From a virus, in the IMG/VR virus record IMGVR_UViG_3300048583_000185, positions 1 to 35,555 of that record: a stretch of 35,555 nucleotides of DNA; one strand, 5' to 3'. Positions 580-9,251 of the stretch are shown one piece after another. The notes beneath the pieces are model-generated. The model searched no databases, was not told the origin of the DNA, and worked only from the letters and a program-made list of their open reading frames with translations. Numbering within the stretch: the first letter of the stretch is position 1; the number at the start of each line of letters is the position of its first letter. The translations under genes were made by a program, and so were the position numbers.

Positions 580-933
580 ATGGAAGACGAACAGATCAAG
601 GAGTACATCACCGCGCTCCTACAGCCGGCACTGCAGGCGTTGAACGCTGCGGTGCAAAGCCTCAACGCTGTCGAGCAGCGGCTGCAGAGCGGGCTCGATG
701 CTCGTCTGCAGGTCGTCGACCAGCTTCTCCTCGAGCGGCATGCGGTGCAAGTCAACGCAATGGCCGTCAACGATGCAAGGTTCGCCGCGCTGATCGCCTA
801 CGTATCCGGCCAGGATGTCGGAGCAGCACTCGAAGCGTCTCGAGATGGATTCAAGAGCAAGCACCCCGCGCTGTTCGATGCTGCGCTGTGGCGCGTCGAA
901 CCCGACTGGCTGATTGCGCTGCAAAGCCGCTGA
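580..933 (+). CDS. Hypothetical protein, 117 aa, Ala/Leu/Gln-rich (coiled-coil-like)
   Basis: Protein-like composition with no Cys and G-rich first codon positions. It is almost perfectly antisense to an alternative minus-strand ORF (619-936), so the strand choice is uncertain. Confidence 0.45.
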   Translation: MEDEQIKEYITALLQPALQALNAAVQSLNAVEQRLQSGLDARLQVVDQLLLERHAVQVNAMAVNDARFAALIAYVSGQDVGAALEASRDGFKSKHPALFDAALWRVEPDWLIALQSR

Positions 934-935
934 CA

Positions 936-1253
936 TCAAGCGGCCTCAACAGGGCGGGCCAAGTCCGTGCGCGTCTCAAGCGGCGCGGCCGGTGCACCTT
1001 CGGCGGCGATCAGCTCGGGCCAGATGCGGTGCCAGTCGTCGGGGCGGAGGTCGCGGCGGGTGACTGCGCCCAAAGTCGCCTGCTCGATCGCGGCGCAATG
1101 CTCGGCAGGCACGCGCCCGCGATCAATCCACGCCCAGACTGTTGCGCGAGGTGATGGCCCCGTGATCCCAACCGCCGCCGCCAGCGCCGACTGTCCGCCA
1201 CAGAGTTCGGCCGCCCGTTTCAACGCGCCAGCCACGCTAAGGTCTGCATCCAT
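936..1253 (-). CDS. Cro-like / YdaS-type HTH regulator, first gene of the long minus-strand operon
   Basis: VWAWIDRGRVPAEHCAAIEQATLGAVTRRDLRPDDW fits the Cro/YdaS-type HTH pattern found in prophage switches. It is divergent from an XRE repressor across a palindromic operator. Confidence 0.75.
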   Translation of the reverse strand: MDADLSVAGALKRAAELCGGQSALAAAVGITGPSPRATVWAWIDRGRVPAEHCAAIEQATLGAVTRRDLRPDDWHRIWPELIAAEGAPAAPLETRTDLARPVEAA

Positions 1254-1260
1254 CAGCGAA

Positions 1261-1300
1261 GTCTATTCTGAGTTGACTGCGCCGTCAACTTGCAATAGAC
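1261..1300. promoter_or_regulatory. Operator copy 1: nested perfect palindrome with overlapping divergent sigma70-like promoters
   Basis: GTCTATTctgaGTTGACtgcgccGTCAACttgcAATAGAC. Plus strand: TTGACT (1273-1278), 17 nt, TAGACC (1296-1301). Minus strand: TTGACG (1288-1283), 17 nt, TAGACT (1265-1260). Confidence 0.6.
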
Positions 1301-1332
1301 CAAAAAATGATGGATTTGCATACGCTGCACGG

Positions 1333-1701
1333 GTGGAAGCATGGAATAAACAGCAACGCCAAGAGTTCGGCCTGCGGCTGCGGAAAGCCCGCGTCTTAAA
1401 AAAGATGACGCAGACAGAAGTCGGCGCCATGTTTGACGTCGGCAAAGCCGCCGTAAGCGCCTGGGAAGTTGGCAGCAACACGCCCAGCGCCGAACAACTC
1501 GCAAGAATGGCTGACGAGTTCGGAGCGTCAGTCGAATGGCTTCTTTTTGGCGTCGAAGGAGAGCCCTTCTCCATAGAACTGCGCCGCGTCCTGTCGAGCA
1601 TGTCGGCAGAGATGCTTCGCCGGATTGAGAATAGCGTCCGAGGCCAGCTGGACATGCCGCCGCGCGCCCAGTCGACGCAATCCGTTTGCGCTTTTGAGTA
1701 A
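1333..1701 (+). CDS. XRE-family HTH repressor (CI-like), 122 aa, GTG start inferred
   Basis: QEFGLRLRKARVLKKMTQTEVGAMFDVGKAAVSAWEVGSNTPSAEQLARMADEFGASVEWLLFG is a classic HTH_XRE domain. The only in-frame start upstream of it is GTG at 1333. The SD is weak. Confidence 0.75.
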   Translation: MEAWNKQQRQEFGLRLRKARVLKKMTQTEVGAMFDVGKAAVSAWEVGSNTPSAEQLARMADEFGASVEWLLFGVEGEPFSIELRRVLSSMSAEMLRRIENSVRGQLDMPPRAQSTQSVCAFE

Positions 1702-1715
1702 AAAAGTTAGGTGGT

Positions 1716-1756
1716 GTCTATTTTGCGTTGACAGACAGGTCAACTCTGCGTAGACT
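1716..1756. promoter_or_regulatory. Operator copy 2 plus a near-consensus promoter for the plus-strand early operon
   Basis: GTCTATTttgcGTTGACagacagGTCAACtctgcGTAGAC has the same half-sites as copy 1. TTGACA (1728-1733), 17 nt, TAGACT (1751-1756). Confidence 0.6.
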
Positions 1757-1797
1757 TTGCATCCAAGCGCTGACGGTCAGCGCCTTGGAGCGCACCG

Positions 1798-2184
1798 ATG
1801 CGAGAGACTGCCACCGCTGAACTGCTGAGCGTCAGCACAGAAGCCCGCGAACTTGCCCAGTTCGCAAACCCCGCAACCCACACGCCAGGCCCCTGGTGCT
1901 GGTTCGGCCACAGCTTGCGGCCGCTCACCGCCGACCCGCAGCACAGCGCAGTACACACCATCCTCGAAGCCGAGGGCGGCTGCGGCTACCTGATGAGCAA
2001 TCATCACCAGACTCTGCGCGAGCTGGACGCTGACATGCGCCTCATCAAGGAGGCGCCTGTCATGCTGGGCCTGCTGCAGGAACTGATGGGCACGCGCGAT
2101 GCGTGGGGCAACTACCACGTCAGCCGTGACCTCGAGCAACGCCTGTACGCCGCCATCTCCGACGCCACGGTGGCCGCGGTATGA
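1798..2184 (+). CDS. Hypothetical phage protein, 128 aa
   Basis: GGAG lies 8 nt upstream of the ATG. The HTPGPW...LIKEAPVMLGLLQEL pattern recurs in prophage early-region proteins of unknown function. Confidence 0.65.
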   Translation: MRETATAELLSVSTEARELAQFANPATHTPGPWCWFGHSLRPLTADPQHSAVHTILEAEGGCGYLMSNHHQTLRELDADMRLIKEAPVMLGLLQELMGTRDAWGNYHVSRDLEQRLYAAISDATVAAV

Positions 2185-2396
2185 ATTTCCCCGTCACACC
2201 CGAAGAGCGCGCCGCGCTGCTGCGCGCTTACGACGAGGCCGAAGCGACGGCCTACACCGACGAGATCATGGCGCGCGTGGATGCAGAGACCCGTGACAGC
2301 ACCCGCATGCCGTGGTGGTTCTGGGAGGCCGCAGTGGTCGCGGTGGTTCTGACCCTCGCACTGAGCGCTGCTTTCCCCTGGGGGGTTGCAACATGA
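2181..2396 (+). CDS. Small membrane protein, 71 aa
   Basis: ATGA start/stop overlap with the upstream gene. C-terminal hydrophobic helix WWFWEAAVVAVVLTLALSAAF. Confidence 0.6.
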   Translation: MNFPVTPEERAALLRAYDEAEATAYTDEIMARVDAETRDSTRMPWWFWEAAVVAVVLTLALSAAFPWGVAT

Positions 2397-2686
2397 TCAC
2401 GCCGATCAACCATCGCCAGTTTGGCGTGATCCGCGGTGGCGCAGCTTCGAAGACCAGCGGCCAAGACGGCGCGACCGACGACGCGAGCCAACACACCGAA
2501 GAGCGAAGCCCGCTGGCACGCAACATCGAGGCGCTGGTGCGCGACGCCTACAGTGCCGGTCGGCATCACGGTGAAGCGCAGCACTTCCGCCAGGGCTGGC
2601 GCTGGGGCCTGGTGGCCGGCCTGTTCTGGGGCGGCATGTCCGGCATCAGCCTGATCCTGCTGTTGCAGTGGATCGGTGCAGAATGA
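2393..2686 (+). CDS. Hypothetical membrane protein, 97 aa
   Basis: ATGA overlap at 2393-2396. C-terminal TM segment WGLVAGLFWGGMSGISLILLLQW. Confidence 0.6.
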   Translation: MITPINHRQFGVIRGGAASKTSGQDGATDDASQHTEERSPLARNIEALVRDAYSAGRHHGEAQHFRQGWRWGLVAGLFWGGMSGISLILLLQWIGAE

Positions 2687-2904
2687 GCGCCGTGCAGCAA
2701 TGCCTTTTCCCGGCACACGAGCAGCGCCAGCCAGCACAGCCACCGGCCAGCCAGTTCTACCAGGTGCACCGGCACGCCGACCGATGGGCTGTCACGCACG
2801 CCCTGCCCGGCATGAACGGCAGTTGGGCTGTCGACATCTGCTGCCCGACGCAGGCCGCAGCCGAGCGGGAAGCTGCAAGGATGAATGCGGAGCGCTCGGC
2901 ATGA
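2683..2904 (+). CDS. Hypothetical protein, 73 aa
   Basis: ATGA overlap at both ends (2683-2686 and 2901-2904). No motif recognised. Confidence 0.5.
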   Translation: MSAVQQCLFPAHEQRQPAQPPASQFYQVHRHADRWAVTHALPGMNGSWAVDICCPTQAAAEREAARMNAERSA

Positions 2905-3542
2905 CGACACGCATCCCGAACCTGCGCGGCAAAGACCCGATGCTGATCGGCATCTGCGGTCGGGCCGGTACCGGCAAGACGGCTGCTGCCGAGTACCTGA
3001 TGGCCCGCCACCGCTTCGAGGTGGCAGCCTTTGCCGACGAGCTGAAAGACCTGCTCGCGCTGCACTTTGAAACGCTGGGCGTCGACTATTCGCATCTGCA
3101 TGAGCCGACGCTGAAGAACGCGCCGCTGCCGGGCTTTGGCTTCGTCGCCGGCCCCGTCACCGCCCGCATGCTCATGCAGACTCTGGGCGACTGGGGCCGC
3201 GCGATCGACCCTGACTGGTGGGTCAACGCCCTGGCGCATCGCGTGGGCTTGCACGACGCGACCCAAGGCTCTTCGGGTTCCCATACACCGATCCACGATC
3301 GCATCTGCATCAGCGATGTGCGCTACCCGAACGAAGCCGAGTGGCTGATCGAGCGCGGGGGCGTGCTGATCCGGCTGCAGCGCGAACAGGCCCAGGCCGT
3401 GCGCGCGCACAGCAGCGAGAGCCACATCGACGAGCTGCCGGCGCACATCGACCTGTACAACGAGGGGCCGACGCTGGCCGGCTTTCATGCGCTGCTCGAC
3501 GGTGCGCTGGCCAGCGTGGGCGTGGATGCGACAGCGCCATGA
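2901..3542 (+). CDS. P-loop dNMP-kinase-like protein
   Basis: Walker A LIGICGRAGTGKT. AFADELKD and ICISDVRYPNEAEWLIERGGVLIRLQR match the phage deoxynucleoside-monophosphate kinase family pattern (xxDVRFPNE). Confidence 0.65.
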   Translation: MTTRIPNLRGKDPMLIGICGRAGTGKTAAAEYLMARHRFEVAAFADELKDLLALHFETLGVDYSHLHEPTLKNAPLPGFGFVAGPVTARMLMQTLGDWGRAIDPDWWVNALAHRVGLHDATQGSSGSHTPIHDRICISDVRYPNEAEWLIERGGVLIRLQREQAQAVRAHSSESHIDELPAHIDLYNEGPTLAGFHALLDGALASVGVDATAP

Positions 3543-4120
3543 GCCACGCAACCGGCACTTACCTGGGCGGCATTCGAACGATCGACTGCCTGCAAAAGCG
3601 TAGCCACGTCTGCCCCGACACCGACTGCTGGCACTGGCGCATGGCCATCGTGCAGGGCACGCCCAAGGTCCATTTCACAACGCCGGACAGCGGCCGAAGC
3701 ATCAGCATGCGCGGCCGCCGCGCGGCGCTGTACCTGCTGCGAGGCATCGACGTGCCCGCCGGGCATGTGGCCTACCCGCGCATGACCTGCAAGAGCCGCG
3801 ACTGCGTCAACCCGGCGCACTCGACCAGCGGCGACCGAGACGCACACGGGCTGTGGCTGCGCAAGACCGGCGCCGTGGCCGGGCTGGCAAGCAAGTGCGC
3901 CGGCAGCCGCAAGGGATGGGAAGGCCGGCGCAAACTCACGCCCGAGGCCGTGGCCGACATCCGCTCGAGCGCCGAGAGCAACCTGGCATTGGCCGCCCGC
4001 TGGGGCGTCAGCCAGTTCGCCATCTGGTCGTGTAGGGTGGGCCAGACACACCGCAACGCGGTTGCCGGCAGCAGCGTTTTCAACTGGATACCAGCAGCAC
4101 AGATCGGGCGGCGGTCATGA
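3539..4120 (+). CDS. HNH-like (degenerate) DNA-binding protein with C-terminal HTH
   Basis: CWHWRMA...RRAALYLLRG...TCKSRDCVNPAHS resembles phage HNH_3-type proteins (CxNPxH). The tail KLTPEAVADIRSSAESNLALAARWGVSQFAIWS is the usual HTH appendix. Confidence 0.5.
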   Translation: MSHATGTYLGGIRTIDCLQKRSHVCPDTDCWHWRMAIVQGTPKVHFTTPDSGRSISMRGRRAALYLLRGIDVPAGHVAYPRMTCKSRDCVNPAHSTSGDRDAHGLWLRKTGAVAGLASKCAGSRKGWEGRRKLTPEAVADIRSSAESNLALAARWGVSQFAIWSCRVGQTHRNAVAGSSVFNWIPAAQIGRRS

Positions 4121-4521
4121 CGGATCAGTCAGACGCTGAGCACCCGCCTGCCACTGCCGGCGCCGACCCATTCGCCTGCATGGCCTCCGTCTTGGCCAAG
4201 GACAGGCCGCAGCAAAGCTGGATTACCGCCCCGCAGGTGACGCCGCTGCCAGAGGGAACCACCCGCGTCTCGGCGATGCTTTCGCTGCTGGCGACCGGCG
4301 GGCAATCTGCGGCCGAGCTGGCTGCGGCGGCTGGCGGCATTCCCACTGGGGCAGTGAGTGCGCTGCTGCACTCCCGCATGGAGCGCGGGCAGGTTCGGCG
4401 GGAGTGTGGAATCTATGAGTTGGTCCCTGAGTACGAAGACGAACTACACGCCAAGCTCAAGGCGGCCGCTTTGTGGCTGCGAGAGCACGGGTATGTGGTC
4501 AGCAGGGAGACGAAAGCATGA
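4117..4521 (+). CDS. Hypothetical protein with a probable winged-helix domain, 134 aa
   Basis: ATGA overlap. VSAMLSLLATGGQSAAELAAAAGGIPTGAVSALLHSRMERGQVRRE looks like a MarR-type wHTH. Confidence 0.55.
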   Translation: MTDQSDAEHPPATAGADPFACMASVLAKDRPQQSWITAPQVTPLPEGTTRVSAMLSLLATGGQSAAELAAAAGGIPTGAVSALLHSRMERGQVRRECGIYELVPEYEDELHAKLKAAALWLREHGYVVSRETKA

Positions 4522-4784
4522 GCAGCGTCAAGAAGCCCGTGCGGCTGGAGCTGAACAACAGCGGAAGCTGGAAGGTGATCGGCCGCTTCGAAGCGGCAGA
4601 CGACGAGCAGAGCAGTTTGGTGCTGGATGCGGCCGAGGAACTGATTAAGACGCTGCACAACAGCGAAGACCCGAAGCGCTGCCCGACGATGCGGGTGAGC
4701 ATGGACGGCGGTCTGGGGAGCGTGCTTTTGCGCTGGAGCTTGGTCGACGGATGGCGGGATGCGGAGACGGGCAGGGCGGCCTAA
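4518..4784 (+). CDS. Hypothetical protein, 88 aa. Its TAA stop lies inside the GCCTAAC box of the distal attC.
   Basis: ATGA overlap at 4518-4521. Protein-like composition (MSSVKKPVRLELNNSGSWKVIGRFEAADDEQ...). Confidence 0.6.
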   Translation: MSSVKKPVRLELNNSGSWKVIGRFEAADDEQSSLVLDAAEELIKTLHNSEDPKRCPTMRVSMDGGLGSVLLRWSLVDGWRDAETGRAA

Positions 4785-4832
4785 CGCCTAGCTCACCGGC
4801 CGCTTGCGGTCCGGTGCAGCGCGGTGTTATGC
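4779..4832 (-). other. attC site (distal, 54 bp)
   Basis: Minus strand: GCATAAC-ACCGC-GCT[G]CACCGG[A]CCGC-AA-GCGGCCGGTGAGC-TAGGC-GTTAGGC. It has a 13-bp stem, two extrahelical bases 7 nt apart on the R''/L'' arm, and unpaired 5-nt spacers. Confidence 0.7.
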
Positions 4833-4857
4833 GTGTGGTTCCGAAGCGTGGAGATGT

Positions 4858-5913
4858 ATGAATGAGTTGGCTCTTTTCGCAGGCGCTGGTGGCGGAATAC
4901 TCGCAGGCCACATGCTGGGCTGGCGCACCGTCTGCGCAGTTGAGCGTGATGCCTACGCCGCACAAGTTCTGGCGCAACGACAGAACGATGGAGCCCTCCG
5001 ACCATTCCCGATTTGGGCTGACGTGTGCGGCTTTGACGGAAGACCGTGGCGCGGACTTGTTGACGTGGTTTCGGGGGGCTTCCCTTGCCAAGACATCAGC
5101 GTTGCCGGCAAGGGCGCCGGCATTGACGGAGAGCGCAGCGGCATGTGGAGCCACATGGCGCGGATCATTGGCGAAGTTCGACCCCGCTTCTGCTTCGTGG
5201 AGAACAGCCCAGCCCTCGTTACTCGGGGACTCGGAAGAGTGCTCGGTGACCTGGCCGCGCTCGGGTATGACTGCCGGTGGACTGTGCTGGGAGCTGCCGA
5301 CGTTGGCGCCCCCCACCAGCGCGACAGGTTCTGGCTTGTGGGTGCCGACACCCTGCGCGACCGATGCGAAGCCGATCACGGGCGGGAACCTTTACGTGAC
5401 GGAAACGGGCACGGTGCGACACATGCGGCCGGATGGCAAGAGCAGCAACCGGGGCCTTGCAGCGAGTGCGGCCATGTGGCCGACACCCACCAGCAGCCTG
5501 GGCACGAACGGCGGCCGTGTGACGCCTGCCAAGGCTCTGGAAGGCGGGACGCTGATAGAGGCGCTGAGTGCGCGGACCACTTGGCCGACGCCGACCGTAT
5601 GCGACAACTACAACCGCAAGGGAGCCAGCGCGACCAGCGGGGACGGGCTTGCCACTGCGGTGCTGAAGTTTCCGACGCCTTCGACGCTTGGCATCAATGG
5701 CGGCAGTCATTCTCAAGCGGCGGCAGTGAAGCGCGGCCAGGCGGTGACGGAAGTCAATGGTGGCTCGCTGAACCCGACGTGGGTCGAGTGGCTAATGGGG
5801 TGGCCTATCGGGTGGACCGACTTAAGGCACTCGGAAACGGACAGGTGCCCCGATGCGCAGCCACAGCCTGGCGAATGCTCACTGGTGGCATGAGCGACAC
5901 GCATAACGGCTGA
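4858..5913 (+). CDS. dcm: DNA (cytosine-5) methyltransferase, 351 aa (frame A)
   Basis: Motif I LFAGAGGG, motif IV GGFPCQDIS, motif VI FVENSPAL, motif VIII APHQRDRFWLVG, C-terminal motif X RLKALGNGQVP. GGAG at 4850-4853. The middle third (Arg/Asp/Gly/His-rich) looks poor in this frame. Confidence 0.7.
   Translation: MNELALFAGAGGGILAGHMLGWRTVCAVERDAYAAQVLAQRQNDGALRPFPIWADVCGFDGRPWRGLVDVVSGGFPCQDISVAGKGAGIDGERSGMWSHMARIIGEVRPRFCFVENSPALVTRGLGRVLGDLAALGYDCRWTVLGAADVGAPHQRDRFWLVGADTLRDRCEADHGREPLRDGNGHGATHAAGWQEQQPGPCSECGHVADTHQQPGHERRPCDACQGSGRRDADRGAECADHLADADRMRQLQPQGSQRDQRGRACHCGAEVSDAFDAWHQWRQSFSSGGSEARPGGDGSQWWLAEPDVGRVANGVAYRVDRLKALGNGQVPRCAATAWRMLTGGMSDTHNG
4862..5893 (+). CDS. Overlapping same-strand ORF in the +1 frame of dcm, 343 aa, with WPTPT repeats and a C-terminal LNPTWVEWLMGWPIGWT motif
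   Basis: ATG lies 8 nt after the same GGAG. Balanced composition throughout. Repeated (W/F)PTP(T/S) units. I recognise the C-terminal motif from phage methylase-associated proteins. It is unclear whether it is translated. Confidence 0.4.
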   Translation: MSWLFSQALVAEYSQATCWAGAPSAQLSVMPTPHKFWRNDRTMEPSDHSRFGLTCAALTEDRGADLLTWFRGASLAKTSALPARAPALTESAAACGATWRGSLAKFDPASASWRTAQPSLLGDSEECSVTWPRSGMTAGGLCWELPTLAPPTSATGSGLWVPTPCATDAKPITGGNLYVTETGTVRHMRPDGKSSNRGLAASAAMWPTPTSSLGTNGGRVTPAKALEGGTLIEALSARTTWPTPTVCDNYNRKGASATSGDGLATAVLKFPTPSTLGINGGSHSQAAAVKRGQAVTEVNGGSLNPTWVEWLMGWPIGWTDLRHSETDRCPDAQPQPGECSLVA

Positions 5914-5985
5914 GTTCAGCGGGCCGCGTGATGCGGCCTGAAAGTGCGGAGTCCGTGACGGCTCCGCTGCAACGATTGGTTAGGC
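5901..5985 (-). other. attC site (proximal, 85 bp)
   Basis: Minus strand: GCCTAAC-CAATC-GTT[G]CAGCGG[A]GCCG-(32-nt variable loop)-CGGCCCGCTGAAC-TCAGCC-GTTATGC. This is the same 5-nt/6-nt spacer and bulge geometry as the aadA1 attC. Confidence 0.75.
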
Positions 5986-6006
5986 CCTGGTGGCCGAAGG
6001 GGAAGA

Positions 6007-6255
6007 ATGATGAACACCAAAGAGAAAGCCGCGATGGATGCGGGCGTGCAGTTCGGCATGAACATGCTCAAACTGGTGCCAAGCGACGACAAGCTGGCGC
6101 AGGAAGCCCACATCACCGGCGTGCTGGTGGCATTCATGGGCGCGCTGTGGGGCACGCTGGGCACCGAGTACGCACGGGGCTTCATTGAGGCCCAGCTTCG
6201 CGGCATGGAGCCCGACAAGCCGCATGAGCGATTCACGGCGCCGCCCGTGCAGTAA
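6007..6255 (+). CDS. Hypothetical protein, 82 aa (cassette 1 ORF)
   Basis: GGGGAAG SD precedes ATGATG. Flanked by GTTAGGC (5979-5985) and GCCTAAC (6258-6264). Central hydrophobic stretch ITGVLVAFMGALWGTLG. Confidence 0.6.
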   Translation: MMNTKEKAAMDAGVQFGMNMLKLVPSDDKLAQEAHITGVLVAFMGALWGTLGTEYARGFIEAQLRGMEPDKPHERFTAPPVQ

Positions 6256-6257
6256 GG

Positions 6258-6318
6258 GCCTAACTTCAATTCGCCAACACCCTGACCACCTCCCCGTCGC
6301 ATAACACCGAGCCGCCGC
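6258..6318 (-). other. attI-like site
   Basis: Minus strand from the intI ATG: GTTATGC (6305-6299), GTTGGCG (6278-6272), GTTAGGC (6264-6258). All are direct repeats with no attC-type palindrome, comparable to the DR/L/R box layout of attI1 ending in GTTAGGC. Confidence 0.55.
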
Positions 6319-7350
6319 ATGCAAGTCATTGATCTGCCATTACCCGCAGCGGTTACGCACGACGCCGCTCCCGCGTTATGCGACGCGCCACCGAAGCGGC
6401 TTAAGCAGCTCATGCGCGAAGCCTGCGCGGTGCGCCATTACAGCCGGCGCACGTTCCAGGCGTACTGGCACTGGTCGAAGCGCTTCATCCTCTGGTCAGG
6501 TAAGCGGCACCCGCGCGACATGGGCCAGCTCGAGGTGTCCGAGTTCCTGACCTGGCTGGCCATCGAAGGCAACGTCTCAGCCAGCACTCAGCGCCAAGCT
6601 CTGCACGGCATCCTGTTCTTGTACCAGGCGGCGCTCGGTATCCAGATCGGCTGGATCGAAAACATCGTGCGGGCCAAGCAAGCCCAGCGACTGCCCACAG
6701 TGATGTCTGTCGACGAGACTTCGGCAGTGCTGGCGGCCACCAGCGGCACGCCTGGGCTTTTCCTGCGGCTGCTGTACGGTACCGGCCTGCGGCTGATGGA
6801 AGGTCTGCGCCTGCGGGTCAAAGACCTGGACATCCCCCAGCGATTGGTGATCGTGCGCGGCGGCAAGGGCGACAAGGATCGCGTCACCGTGCTCCCAGAG
6901 CGCCTCGTCAAGCCCCTGACCGAGCTGCTCGATCAGCGCCGCCGCTGGCACCAGATCGACATGGCCACCGGGCACGCCAGCGTTGACCTGCCACACGCGC
7001 TGGCCAAGAAGTACCTGCGCGCTGGCTCCGAGTGGCCCTGGCAGTACGTCTTTGCCACGCCCGAGTACCACGTCAACCCAGACACCGGCGAAGAGCGCCG
7101 TCACCACCTTTTCGACTGGACCATCCAGCGCGCCATGAAGGACGCGGTACGCGCTGCCGGCGTCACGAAGCCAGCCACCCCGCACACGCTGCGGCACTGC
7201 TTTGCCACTCACCTGCTGCAGGCCGGCACCGACATCCGCCGCATCCAGGAGCTGCTGGGTCATGCAGACGTCAGCACGACCATGATCTACACCCACGTCG
7301 CCTCCATGGGACACACCGGCGTGCGCAGCCCGTTGGACGCGCTTGCATGA
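6319..7350 (+). CDS. intI: Integron integrase (IntI-type tyrosine recombinase), 343 aa
   Basis: Collinear by eye with IntI1: HYSRRTFQAYWHWSKRFI, STQRQAL, LLYGTGLRLMEGLRLRVKDLD, GKGDKDR, ATPHTLRHCFATHLL, LLGHADVSTTMIYTHV, GVRSPLDAL. It also has the IntI-specific insert DLPHALAKKYLRAGSEWPWQYVFA (nt 6979-7056). Confidence 0.85.
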   Translation: MQVIDLPLPAAVTHDAAPALCDAPPKRLKQLMREACAVRHYSRRTFQAYWHWSKRFILWSGKRHPRDMGQLEVSEFLTWLAIEGNVSASTQRQALHGILFLYQAALGIQIGWIENIVRAKQAQRLPTVMSVDETSAVLAATSGTPGLFLRLLYGTGLRLMEGLRLRVKDLDIPQRLVIVRGGKGDKDRVTVLPERLVKPLTELLDQRRRWHQIDMATGHASVDLPHALAKKYLRAGSEWPWQYVFATPEYHVNPDTGEERRHHLFDWTIQRAMKDAVRAAGVTKPATPHTLRHCFATHLLQAGTDIRRIQELLGHADVSTTMIYTHVASMGHTGVRSPLDALA

Positions 7351-7586
7351 CCACACTCGACATCCCCGCGATTGCTGAGCTGCTTGGCGTCAGCGCTAAG
7401 ACCGTGCGCGACCGCTTGGTGCATCGGCCCGACTTTCCGCCGCCACTGCTTGCAGCCGGCCCTCGATCTCGCCGCTGGTGCGCCGCCGAAGTCACCGCCT
7501 GGGCGACGCCAGCCGCGCGGCGATCTCCTGCGCCGTCTCGCGGAAATACACCCGCAGCAGAAGCGACAAGTCCCGATGCCCGCTGA
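7347..7586 (+). CDS. xis: Excisionase/AlpA-like MerR-type HTH protein
   Basis: LDIPAIAELLGVSAKTVRDRLVHRPDFPPPL...RRWCAAEVTAW is the HTH_17/Xis pattern. ATGA overlap with the intI stop. The 3' 95 nt overlap the convergent integrase gene, so the true stop is uncertain. Confidence 0.6.
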   Translation: MTTLDIPAIAELLGVSAKTVRDRLVHRPDFPPPLLAAGPRSRRWCAAEVTAWATPAARRSPAPSRGNTPAAEATSPDAR

Positions 7587-8517
7587 TCCGTGCGAGCGTC
7601 AGCACATCGACGCGGCGCGACAGCATTGTCAGCGCCGTGGCTCTGGCGTCATGGAAATGCACATCGCCCAGCATCACAGAATCCCGCACTCGCCGGAATA
7701 GCGTGTCCAGGGTGGCTGAAGACAGCGGAAGCAGCCGCCCGTCATCACCCGCCGCCGCCTCCGCCAGCCAGCCCAGCACGCGCGCGCCCTGCGGAGTCAG
7801 CGGCACCAGGCGCCGACCGACAGCGTGCGCTGTCTTGTGGTCGGCCAGCGTCACTACGCGGCGTTGCAGATCGACGGAGCCAACGGTTAGGCCCATGATC
7901 TCGCCGGCCCGCATCGCCGTGCGCAAGCTGACCAGCAGCGCCCAGGCAACGCACTGCAGACCGGTCACCGGCGGCACTGCTGTCCGGTAATCGCAGCGGC
8001 GCATGATGGTGCGGATTTCGCGCCATCCCATGCGCCGGTCGCGCGGGATGGCCTCGGCGGGCATCCTGACGGCTCGCCAGGGCGTCGGCGACGGACTCCA
8101 GGCCCACTCGGTGCTGGCCACCGTCCAGACGTGCCGCAGGATGTTGATGTCGCGCTGCACGCTGGCCGGCGTCACGCGCTGCAGCCGGGCGTCGCGCCAC
8201 TGGCCGAGGTCGTCGGCGGTGATGGTGTGCAGCACCTTGCCGCACAGCGCAGGAAAGTCGCGCTGGATGGCCGCCAGGCGCAGCCGCTCGGCCCTCGCGC
8301 CGCGCTTTTCCGCCGTGATCTCGCGCTCGTAGCGGTCAAGCGCATCGGCCAGCGTCTTGCGCGGCCAACGGCTGACGGTGCCGGCAAGGATCGCCGCTTC
8401 TTCCTGCGCGGCCCATGAGCTTGCCGCAGCTTTGGTGCCGAAGGTGCGCGACGTCCGCACACCCTGGCGCTCGATCTCAACGCGCCAGCCTTTCGCCGTC
8501 TTGCGGTAATACGCCAC
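7492..8517 (-). CDS. int: Phage tyrosine integrase, 341 aa
   Basis: N-terminal arm-binding-type MAYYRKTAKGWRVEIERQG. Catalytic LRTAMRAGEI (R), HFHDARATALT (HxxR), GHRDLSLLLRVYF (H...Y). Adjacent to attP. Confidence 0.85.
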   Translation of the reverse strand: MAYYRKTAKGWRVEIERQGVRTSRTFGTKAAASSWAAQEEAAILAGTVSRWPRKTLADALDRYEREITAEKRGARAERLRLAAIQRDFPALCGKVLHTITADDLGQWRDARLQRVTPASVQRDINILRHVWTVASTEWAWSPSPTPWRAVRMPAEAIPRDRRMGWREIRTIMRRCDYRTAVPPVTGLQCVAWALLVSLRTAMRAGEIMGLTVGSVDLQRRVVTLADHKTAHAVGRRLVPLTPQGARVLGWLAEAAAGDDGRLLPLSSATLDTLFRRVRDSVMLGDVHFHDARATALTMLSRRVDVLTLARISGHRDLSLLLRVYFRETAQEIAARLASPRR

Positions 8518-8741
8518 GCGGGAATCCTTGCGGGACTGGCGCGGGATGACGCCGAGGTCTTGCGGGATTCTGCGCGGCGTTAGGCGGGATTGAGCCTAGG
8601 TATTTCGGGGTTGTGCGGGGCGTTGCGAGGTGCTATGCGGTGCAGGTTCTGGCGCCCCCGGCAGGAATCGAAAGCCTCGCCAGCGCTTGCGATCGACGGC
8701 ATAGGCGGGAATTGTGCGGGATGCGAATTAGGTCAGCCGAC
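8518..8741. other. attP region with arm-type repeats
   Basis: Six or more same-orientation copies of GCGGGA(T), starting at 8530, 8541, 8562, 8584, 8705 and 8715, plus a degenerate copy at 8614. They flank a tRNA-3'-end-like core. Confidence 0.6.
8650..8672 (-). other. attP core candidate: 3' end of a tRNA gene (T-loop, T-stem, acceptor stem, CCA)
   Basis: Minus strand TTCGATTCCTGCCGGGGGCGCCA reads as T-loop TTCGATT, stem CCTGC, acceptor CGGGGGC, discriminator G, CCA. The upstream bases do not complete a T-stem or the rest of a tRNA. Confidence 0.55.
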
Positions 8742-9251
8742 CTAACCGCGCCGCAAAATGTCATCTTTGCGCGCGCTGCCGGCGCTGCTGCCAAAGTAGT
8801 AGGCAACGATCGTACCCCAAGCGCCGCCCAGCGCGCCCAGCATGACCAGCAGCGCCTCGCTGCCGCGCTCTGGCATGCCGGCGGCCAGCAGCCAAGCGAG
8901 CACCCCGAAGAAACCCAGCGTCACGGCCGCAGCCAGCGCTCTCGGCGTCCAGTGGTCGCCGGTCTTGACTTCACGGTCACGCGCGTCAGACCGGTCAGCC
9001 TGATGCAGCTTCTCGACGTCGATATCCAGCTCGCGCATGCGCGTGGAAAACGCCTGATCAGCTTGCCGGATGGCCAGCAGCGCATCCGGCCCACCGGCGG
9101 TGACAGCTGCCGCCACATCGTCCACGGTGGCGTCTTCGCGCCCCAGTAGCTTCGCCGACAGCGCGGCCACTGCCGCCCCTGCAAGCGGTCCGCCAAGCGC
9201 CGCGGCCAGACCAGGAGCTACCGCGCCAACGACATCTTTCCAGTCCGCCAT
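8742..9251 (-). CDS. Holin, 3-TM GTA-type, 169 aa
   Basis: AGGAGG SD precedes the ATG at 9251. Gly/Ala-rich N-terminus, then TM segments LAAAVTLGFFGVLAWLLAAG and ALLVMLGALGGAWGTIVAYYFG. Lies immediately downstream of the endolysin. Confidence 0.6.
   Translation of the reverse strand: MADWKDVVGAVAPGLAAALGGPLAGAAVAALSAKLLGREDATVDDVAAAVTAGGPDALLAIRQADQAFSTRMRELDIDVEKLHQADRSDARDREVKTGDHWTPRALAAAVTLGFFGVLAWLLAAGMPERGSEALLVMLGALGGAWGTIVAYYFGSSAGSARKDDILRRG

Follow-up and report, generated by a model that had tools for sequence, protein, structure and literature searches.

An apparently intact integron with reversed gene cassettes in the early accessory region of a temperate phage

Organization of the integron

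The window analysed here is positions 1–35,555 of IMG/VR virus record IMGVR_UViG_3300048583_000185, a stretch of 35,555 nucleotides that by its gene content is a temperate phage genome. Within it lies an integron, with a gene for an integron integrase (intI), an attI site and two gene cassettes, each with its own attC recombination site. We consider it probable that this is a complete, apparently intact integron inside the early accessory operon of the phage, and that its cassettes are read by early transcription toward intI. The anatomy, polarity, coding strand, mobility signatures and conservation of layout are established by the sequence. The features of the array are as follows (aa, amino acids; ORF, open reading frame; R'', L'', L' and R' are the boxes of an attC site).

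4779–4832, minus (top strand): attC2, 54 nt, belonging to the cassette with dcm; 35.4 bits, E value 5e-8
4785–5906, minus: cassette 2, 1122 bp; starts TTATGC on minus, R'' GCATAAC
4858–5913, plus: dcm, coding for a C5-cytosine DNA methyltransferase, antisense to attC polarity; Pfam DNA_methylase, phrog_363
5901–5985, minus (top strand): attC1, 85 nt, belonging to the cassette with the 82-aa ORF; 59 bits
5907–6263, minus: cassette 1, 357 bp; starts TTAGGC on minus, R'' GCCTAAC
6007–6255, plus: 82-aa gene, antisense to attC polarity; preceded by the Shine-Dalgarno-like GAAGGGGAAG
6258–6318, minus: attI; crossover G|TTAGGC on minus (GCCTAAC at 6258–6264 on plus), then a conserved block, TCAATTCGCCAACAC and CGTCGCATAAC
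6295–6305 and 6375–6385, no strand: 11-bp perfect inverted repeat, CGTCGCATAAC and GTTATGCGACG, flanking the intI start codon on both sides
6319–7350, plus: intI, integron integrase; TIGR02249, 417.6 bits (cut-off 265)

The window IntI aligns with IntI1 over its full length at 53% identity, with conservation of the blocks that we take to hold the catalytic R-K-H-R-H-Y residues and the IntI-specific insertion. An exact-protein look-up found no identical protein on record, and the best match among 185,579 species-representative genomes has 59% identity. A search of the IMG/VR viral contigs gave 188 matches, the closest at 66–95% identity, and all relatives in that range of identity are in viral contigs. 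We refer to related and control loci by L numbers. The attI half-site GCCTAAC (6258–6264) lies 55 nt upstream of the intI ATG, and the block flanking it is kept in L003–L009, L016, L035, L063 and L075. The inverted repeat around the intI start codon is also conserved in relatives, with a compensatory change in L009 (GCCTAAC/GTTAGGC). It was tried as a further attC site and rejected, since it is missed by the attC model described below and has no L-box pairing, and its conservation is that of attI and the 5' region of intI, to which it belongs. Its arms resemble R boxes and may therefore be accessory IntI-binding sites; an autoregulatory element is the other candidate role. Control of intI by the SOS response, through LexA, is common among integrons and not universal. 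No exact match to the LexA box CTGT-N8-ACAG was found, and sites with one mismatch are fewer than expected by chance, none of them upstream of intI.

Polarity of the attC sites

A covariance model for attC was built from ten sites: three class 1 sites (aadA2, dfrA12 and orfF) taken from a reference integron oriented as the window is, one site of the window, and six from relatives. Applied to the 35.5-kb window it recovers attC1 and attC2 and no other site. Both are on the minus strand, attC2 was absent from the training set, and no plus-strand site appears even at E values up to 10. A further inverted repeat, 5762–5773/5914–5925, was considered as an additional attC site and is not recovered by the model.

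The fine structure of the sites agrees with this assignment. Read on the minus strand, attC1 is GCCTAAC-caatc-GTT[G]CAGCGG...CCGCTGAAC-tcagcc-GTTATGC and attC2 is GCATAAC-accgc-GCT[G]CACCGG[A]CCGC...GCGGCCGGTGAGC-taggc-GTTAGGC. Both have the top-strand layout of the aadA2 attC, with an R'' box of 7 nt, a 5-nt spacer and an L'' box with an extra base at position 4, and the likeness continues through L', a spacer of 5–6 nt and G|TTRRRY. In attC2 a plus-strand reading puts the extra bases in the 3' arm, and the plus strand is therefore the bottom strand. The two ends of the array also differ, the terminus beside intI being a conserved half-site (attI) and the distal terminus a complete attC. By model and geometry, then, the recombination polarity of both attC sites is that of the minus strand, as in class 1 integrons, and the recombination platform is canonical because attI adjoins the 5' end of intI and the minus-strand polarity leads away from intI. 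An earlier sequence-only reading of this DNA had placed the array on the minus strand and the cassette genes on the plus strand, and had named an attC model with plus as the top strand as grounds for refuting it; the model built here gives the minus strand as top strand for both sites, and geometry, homology and codon statistics bear out the rest.

Coding strand of the cassettes

The dcm product matches Pfam DNA_methylase (E value 9e-31) and, across its full length, phrog_363 (E value 2e-66), and full-length homologues in a single frame are present in other phages. For the 82-aa gene, searches of the window proteins against Pfam/TIGRFAM-type and PHROG families gave no match; it has more than 300 homologues of 81–86 aa. 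Its GC contents at codon positions 1/2/3 are 0.65/0.40/0.84 with a codon score of 0.38, as compared with 0.67/0.46/0.83 and 0.28 for intI, and the minus-strand frames score from -0.61 to +0.06. Three minus-strand ORFs (5916–6413, 5980–6324 and 4645–5379) were considered as genes and rejected as shadow frames, with GC1 lower than GC2 or negative codon scores, which is how the sequence-only reading had described such frames. The start codons follow closely on the attC ends, with 25 nt (4833–4857) between attC2 and dcm and 21 nt (5986–6006) between attC1 and the 82-aa gene.

Since attC polarity is minus and the coding strand is plus, both cassette genes lie antisense to attC. Coordinates and codon statistics confirm that dcm and the 82-aa gene run in this way and are co-directional with the early genes, intI and a xis-like gene downstream, the arrangement that had been proposed. 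Two parts of the proposal need amendment. The ORF 4858–5913 had been taken as a cassette ORF, and it does code on the plus strand; its TGA stop (5911–5913) falls just past the cassette boundary, within attC1, and there is no in-frame stop inside its own cassette. The stop comes from the neighbouring attC1, and the C-terminus would therefore change upon movement of the cassette. The two genes had also been called the only credible ORFs of the cassettes. This holds as regards the minus-strand frames, but dcm is not alone in its cassette.

The second ORF of that cassette is nested within dcm.

4862–5893, plus: 343-aa ORF in the +1 frame of dcm, with WPTP repeats, NPTWVEWLMGWPIGWTDL; phrog_1008, E value 2e-33

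Frame 0 of dcm thus matches phrog_363 and the nested frame a different family, phrog_1008. The nested ORF is also open in the dcm genes of Salmonella, Acinetobacter, Lacticaseibacillus and Escherichia coli phages, examples being Salmonella phage S9-5, ctgrD200, Lacticaseibacillus phage R9.1 and K1ind2; for phage K1ind2, GenBank annotates both overlapping genes, the nested one as 'Mte8-like'. When synonymous codons were permuted in three genes, a +1 frame this open arose in 3 of 5000 permutations of the window dcm and in 99 and 76 of 5000 for the other two. Codon usage favours the +1 frame in the middle of dcm, and codon-position divergence favours frame 0 at its N- and C-termini. Taken together, these data suggest that dcm and the nested ORF may be a conserved overlapping gene pair.

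Related loci and controls

We asked how the same model behaves elsewhere. On 81 related loci it finds 177 sites, nearly all on the minus strand upstream of intI. The coding strand was surveyed in about 20 related loci. In about 15 related phage loci, with IntI 51–95% identical to that of the window, at least 50 cassettes are reversed as in the window and none is clearly canonical. At the same attI, L005 and L004 (IntI 81%) have other cassettes, including ones for an N6-methyltransferase and a zinc-finger-like protein. In L006 (IntI 77%) there are six attC sites, and one cassette is duplicated; L007 (IntI 74%) has a single cassette. The genes are on the plus strand in all four. Codon statistics place the best ORF on the plus strand in L075 (6 of 7 cassettes, clearly), L063 (4/4), L016 (5/5), L035 (1/1), L013 (3 clear), L030, L038 (3/3), L062 (3/3) and L072 (3/3). 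In L085–L091 the independent gene calls of the database are all on the plus strand, and homologues of the 82-aa gene are found there in attC-flanked cassettes in the same orientation, in first position or mid-array; a survey of homologous cassettes, which had been suggested as a check, thus turns up the same reversed arrangement.

Controls were run with the same tools. Coding is canonical in a class 1 integron (L083), and it follows attC in a class-1-like isolate locus (L078) and in a locus with a truly inverted intI (L082). It is also canonical in the chromosomal integrons of Comamonas, Roseateles and Contendobacter (L116, L140 and L113), whose IntI proteins are 53–54% identical to that of the window. 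Because chromosomal and class 1 controls are canonical with the same tools, the reversal is, across the loci compared, a property of phage-borne arrays, and neither of the IntI clade nor an artefact of calling polarity. The orientation of two cassettes out of two had been read as a sign of selection, and this proposal gains from the wider set, with at least 50 reversed cassettes in about 15 related phage loci and canonical controls: the reversal is systematic across relatives and therefore selected.

In many related cassettes with a long attC the gene starts inside the attC loop, where a Shine-Dalgarno sequence and ATGACC lie about 33–48 nt from the R' end of the site, and an N-terminal peptide that recurs among them, PLALxLSEGLGPN, is encoded by the attC arm. 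These starts look like a design for bottom-strand expression rather than an accidental inversion.

Starts within attC loops: L005:5449–5568, L006:4991–5110, L006:5612–5708, L016:3552–3671, L035:5524–5625, L075:2281–2406, and others

Two further arrays differ in setting. L091 (GCA_016712915.1, a Betaproteobacteria metagenome-assembled genome) has at 2230–5529 six attC sites with plus-strand genes and no intI, and is thus a reversed CALIN, which is an attC cluster without intI. It lies in a phage early region (ERF, Gp157 ... N6_N4 methyltransferase, int), with an 81-aa gene cassette in the middle of the array. L111 (Lampropedia puyangensis) has at 1463–4670 a chromosomal array of many near-identical cassettes of about 245 bp that apparently lack genes.

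Signatures of cassette movement

The R'' of each window cassette is perfectly complementary to the first six bases of its own 5' end (TTAGGC/GCCTAAC and TTATGC/GCATAAC), which is, on this pairing, the footprint of the G|TT crossover. Pairing was examined more widely at 61 sites, taken from the window and 14 other loci. In the L box it amounts to 98%, with compensatory changes in seven of nine pairs and an invariant AAC/GTT, and the outer R-box positions are mismatched within attC sites. Between R'' and the R' half of the neighbouring site, complementarity is perfect at 37 of 47 junctions, compared with 12 of 61 within a site. We dropped this complementarity as a test of polarity: it is symmetric between the two polarities, and therefore shows cassette-type recombination only.

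Cassettes themselves also appear to move. The 82-aa cassette recurs at different array positions, homology between its copies in L085, L089 and L091 stops at the AAC of the R box, and close relatives differ in their cassette arrays. L006 has the same cassette twice in one array (3263–3916 and 4338–4991). The pairing and junction signatures, this duplication, the differences between arrays and the sharing of a cassette between them argue for ongoing IntI-mediated cassette turnover.

Several other observations concern individual relatives. L003, the closest (IntI 95%), has a contig that ends exactly at the attI CCTAAC (L003:1–60), an end that would fit an assembly broken by variation of the cassettes within the population. 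The L006 IntI (6001–7011) lacks a 12-residue stretch present in the window, L005 and IntI1, and may be impaired; at L006:5415–5945 an ORF runs in frame across attC into the gene of the next cassette, possibly a fusion or a missing stop. The N6-methyltransferase cassettes of L005 (4760–5010) and L004 (1555–1755) contain a tandem 42-nt coding repeat (LPHLGDAGxGVNRx), whose copy number differs between these otherwise near-identical loci.

The surrounding phage genome

The minus strand of the window carries genes for primase/helicase, large terminase, portal, tape measure, tail fibre and endolysin, with a tyrosine integrase gene last (7492–8517). On the plus strand an XRE-type regulator and the promoter-like site at 1728–1756 are followed by small genes, head to tail, up to 7586.

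1798–4784, plus: early accessory genes, tightly packed, upstream of the array; the last ORF is 4518–4784
7350–7586, plus: xis-like HTH_17 gene, last of the plus-strand unit; PF12728, E value 3e-5, and phrog_66, E value 3e-6
7492–8517, minus: phage tyrosine integrase gene, convergent with the xis-like gene; PF00589, E value 2e-13

From 1798 to 7586 every gene is head to tail and closely packed, and the integron sits inside this run of early accessory genes, directly upstream of the phage xis-like and int genes. The PF12728 match of the xis-like gene (24.6 bits) is under the Pfam gathering score of 27; phrog_66 is a family of excisionases and transcriptional regulators. The 3' ends of the xis-like gene (plus) and int (minus) overlap by about 95 nt (7492–7586). 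At the other end of the array, the TAA stop of ORF 4518–4784 (GC1/2/3 of.60/.46/.85) falls within the R' box of attC2. A search of viral contigs for the same phage with other cassettes, made with a backbone gene a little further upstream (4117–4521), gave no relatives. The gene order of cassettes, attI, intI, xis-like gene and int is seen again in L006 and L075.

Expression of the cassettes

Promoters, terminators and operator-like sequences were sought by simple scans, with the following features found.

1728–1756, plus: promoter-like site of the early operon, TTGACA-17-TAGACT; 10/12 consensus matches
1728–1743, no strand: operator-like palindrome TTGACAGACAGGTCAA, an exact TTGAC-N6-GTCAA overlapping the plus-strand promoter-like site
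1273–1288, no strand: second operator-like palindrome, an exact TTGAC-N6-GTCAA overlapping the -35 hexamer TTGACG (1288–1283)
1288–1260, minus: divergent promoter-like site, by consensus scan

The site at 1728–1756, named earlier as an operator-controlled phage promoter, is thus present and overlaps an exact palindrome. Exact copies of TTGAC-N6-GTCAA occur only at 1273–1288 and 1728–1743 (0.55 expected at one mismatch or fewer). The palindromes are candidate operators of a lysis-lysogeny switch, and the pattern fits a repressor-controlled switch. A consensus scan of 900–8800 gives 1728–1756 as the sole plus-strand promoter-like site, and shows no promoter-like site in 4779–6318 and no Pc-like promoter on the minus strand near attI and intI; a simple scan of the plus strand from 1756 to 8800 gave no terminator-like site. 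Because there is a lone plus-strand promoter-like site, with no terminator-like and no Pc-like site, read-through from the early operon is the most economical account, and we infer transcription from 1728–1756 as the best model for expression of the cassettes.

With its cassette genes on the bottom strand of attC, the array would be read toward attI, starting at the distal end. Transcription would proceed from the repressor-controlled early promoter through the accessory genes, dcm, the 82-aa gene and intI to the xis-like gene, with a ribosome-binding site for each cassette gene; in many related cassettes this site lies within the attC loop, as does the start codon. As parts of one transcription unit, IntI and the cassette products would appear together, upon infection or induction and during phage replication, and IntI could then excise, insert or swap cassettes with co-resident phages or integrons. 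The cargo would be typical early accessory genes of phages, namely those for DNA methyltransferases and small proteins. In integrons, taken to be devices of bacteria, selectivity of IntI for the bottom strand of attC is described as fixing cassette orientation so that promoterless genes are expressed from Pc (PMC13108822). In the window that selectivity would set the orientation for expression from the other side. We put forward tentatively, at somewhat less than even confidence, the broader proposal that a temperate-phage lineage has turned the integron into an operon-embedded exchanger of accessory genes, with cassettes, integrase and replication switched on together. If so, the bottom strand is the non-template strand, and transcription itself may therefore promote attC folding and cassette shuffling.

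Several considerations weigh against expression from the early operon in a reversed, phage-specific array. The scans for promoters and terminators use a crude consensus, and a weak or non-sigma-70 Pc or internal promoters could escape them; attC hairpins could attenuate read-through. The expression part of the account (the promoter used, read-through, the timing of IntI and any benefit) is inferred from the sequence. Among the relatives, strand calls for short ORFs rely on codon statistics trained on the window, a few cassettes are ambiguous (L026, parts of L023, one in L075 and one in L013), and the viral assignment made by IMG/VR was checked for L006, L007, L075 and L091.

Alternative explanations

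Reversed cassettes could instead each be driven by an internal promoter of their own, the phage early promoter being irrelevant. The insensitivity of a consensus promoter scan leaves room for this, and reverse-oriented cassettes in sedentary chromosomal integrons, such as toxin-antitoxin modules, usually bring their own promoters. The window leaves little space for such elements, as the 25 nt and 21 nt between attC and start codon give no room for a promoter outside attC, the scan of 4779–6318 is empty, many related genes begin within the attC loop itself, and the genes of 1798–7586 are packed head to tail. The cargo is also of another kind, a methyltransferase and small phage-type proteins rather than toxin-antitoxin pairs. 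We regard self-promoted cassettes as unlikely.

Another explanation is that the array is a decaying relic, in which ordinary phage genes happen to lie between attC-like palindromes and the orientation of two cassettes out of two is a matter of chance. The window does hold just two cassettes, and dcm homologues are found in many phages outside any cassette. Decay is difficult to reconcile with an intact IntI, with attC sites that score well and show covariation, and with the R''/R' exchange signature; nor would chance readily place the 82-aa cassette in several arrays and positions or orient 50 or more cassettes alike across about 15 related loci while the controls are canonical. Such a relic is very improbable.

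That the polarity call is wrong, with plus as the functional top strand, canonical ORFs and an intI of the inverted, Treponema-like type, is scarcely credible: attC sites are near-palindromic and R''/R' complementarity alone cannot separate the polarities, but a plus-strand array is opposed by the strand specificity of a model that includes experimentally defined class 1 sites and matches minus only, by the 5-/6-nt spacers and position-4 extra base that equal the aadA2 top strand when read on minus, and by the attI half-site at the intI-side end with a complete attC at the distal end. Applied to chromosomal integrons with canonical ORFs, this model selects the same strand, and in the truly inverted L082 it places its sites on the plus strand downstream of intI.

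Relation to known systems

All of the structural features of an integron that we tested for are found in the window: intI, the attC architecture, the position of attI, and discrete cassettes bounded by G|TT. Those tied to expression are not found: the genes do not follow attC polarity, and simple scans show neither a Pc-like promoter nor a LexA box. One close comparison is the class 1/IntI1 type of soil and freshwater proteobacteria, which shares with the window an IntI (53% to IntI1) with the IntI-specific insertion, the G|TT crossover, attI at the 5' end of intI, an intI divergent from the attC top strand, and the attC geometry of aadA2, dfrA12 and orfF. In contrast to that type, the window genes are on the attC bottom strand and read toward attI and intI, the scans show no Pc-like site or LexA box, the integron is set next to xis and int within the early operon of a phage, and translation of many related cassettes begins in the attC loop.

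Integrons with an inverted integrase, such as those of Treponema denticola and Chlorobium, also transcribe intI and the cassette genes in the same direction. In these it is intI that is flipped, such that attC top strand, genes and intI agree and the cassettes lie downstream of intI, a layout that L082 displays under our attC model. The window integron is not of this type, because its intI is in the canonical place and opposite to the attC top strand, with the reversed genes upstream and pointing at intI, whereas in inverted-integrase integrons intI is flipped while the genes follow attC. Reverse cassettes of sedentary chromosomal integrons, as with Vibrio toxin-antitoxin genes, share an ORF antisense to attC polarity; they are a minority in otherwise canonical arrays and have their own promoters. 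Here, by comparison, all cassettes are reversed and apparently promoterless and would be read as an operon, and the window cassettes do not resemble self-expressed toxin-antitoxin units, there being no promoter-like site and a cargo of dcm and a single 82-aa gene. The accessory ('moron'/pL-type) regions of lambdoid early operons share the position between early genes and xis/int, the small accessory genes and DNA methyltransferases, and the repressor-controlled early promoter. They differ in that turnover here would be through the IntI/attI/attC site-specific system and not through illegitimate or homologous recombination.

The passages of a survey of phage genomes that bear on this (Qi et al. 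2023, PMC9892861) report three complete integrons in 10,705 genomes: a fragment of a host Vibrio chromosomal integron, class 1 integrons carried by a P1 phage-plasmid, and an inactive prophage of Shewanella. These share with the window a complete integron in a temperate phage and methyltransferase cassettes; the matched passages of that survey mention neither reversed cassette coding nor a phage-specific lineage. Those cases are, as described there, bacterial integrons carried by phages, whereas the window lineage has its own type of attI and recurs in many viral contigs. The window integron is not near-identical to a host chromosomal or class 1 integron (IntI 53% to IntI1). Literature searches on phage integrons and on Mte8 gave nothing relevant beyond this survey, and reversed, operon-embedded phage integrons, of which we found no description in the searchable literature, appear to be undescribed.

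Implications

In these phages the recombination machinery of integrons is kept and the logic of coding is inverted, and this consistently. The polarity of attC as the setter of expression is thus not a universal rule, and annotation pipelines that assume ORFs to follow attC polarity could mis-annotate such arrays. The activity of the integron may follow the lysis-lysogeny decision and not the SOS response of the host. The system also offers a testable setting for the origin of cassettes and for the exchange of anti-restriction or early accessory genes among phages. An integron lineage can be the phages' own, and not just a bacterial one that they carry, and if the reading given here is true, this would be a second, phage-specific integron design and a dedicated trade route for methyltransferases and other early or counter-defence genes.

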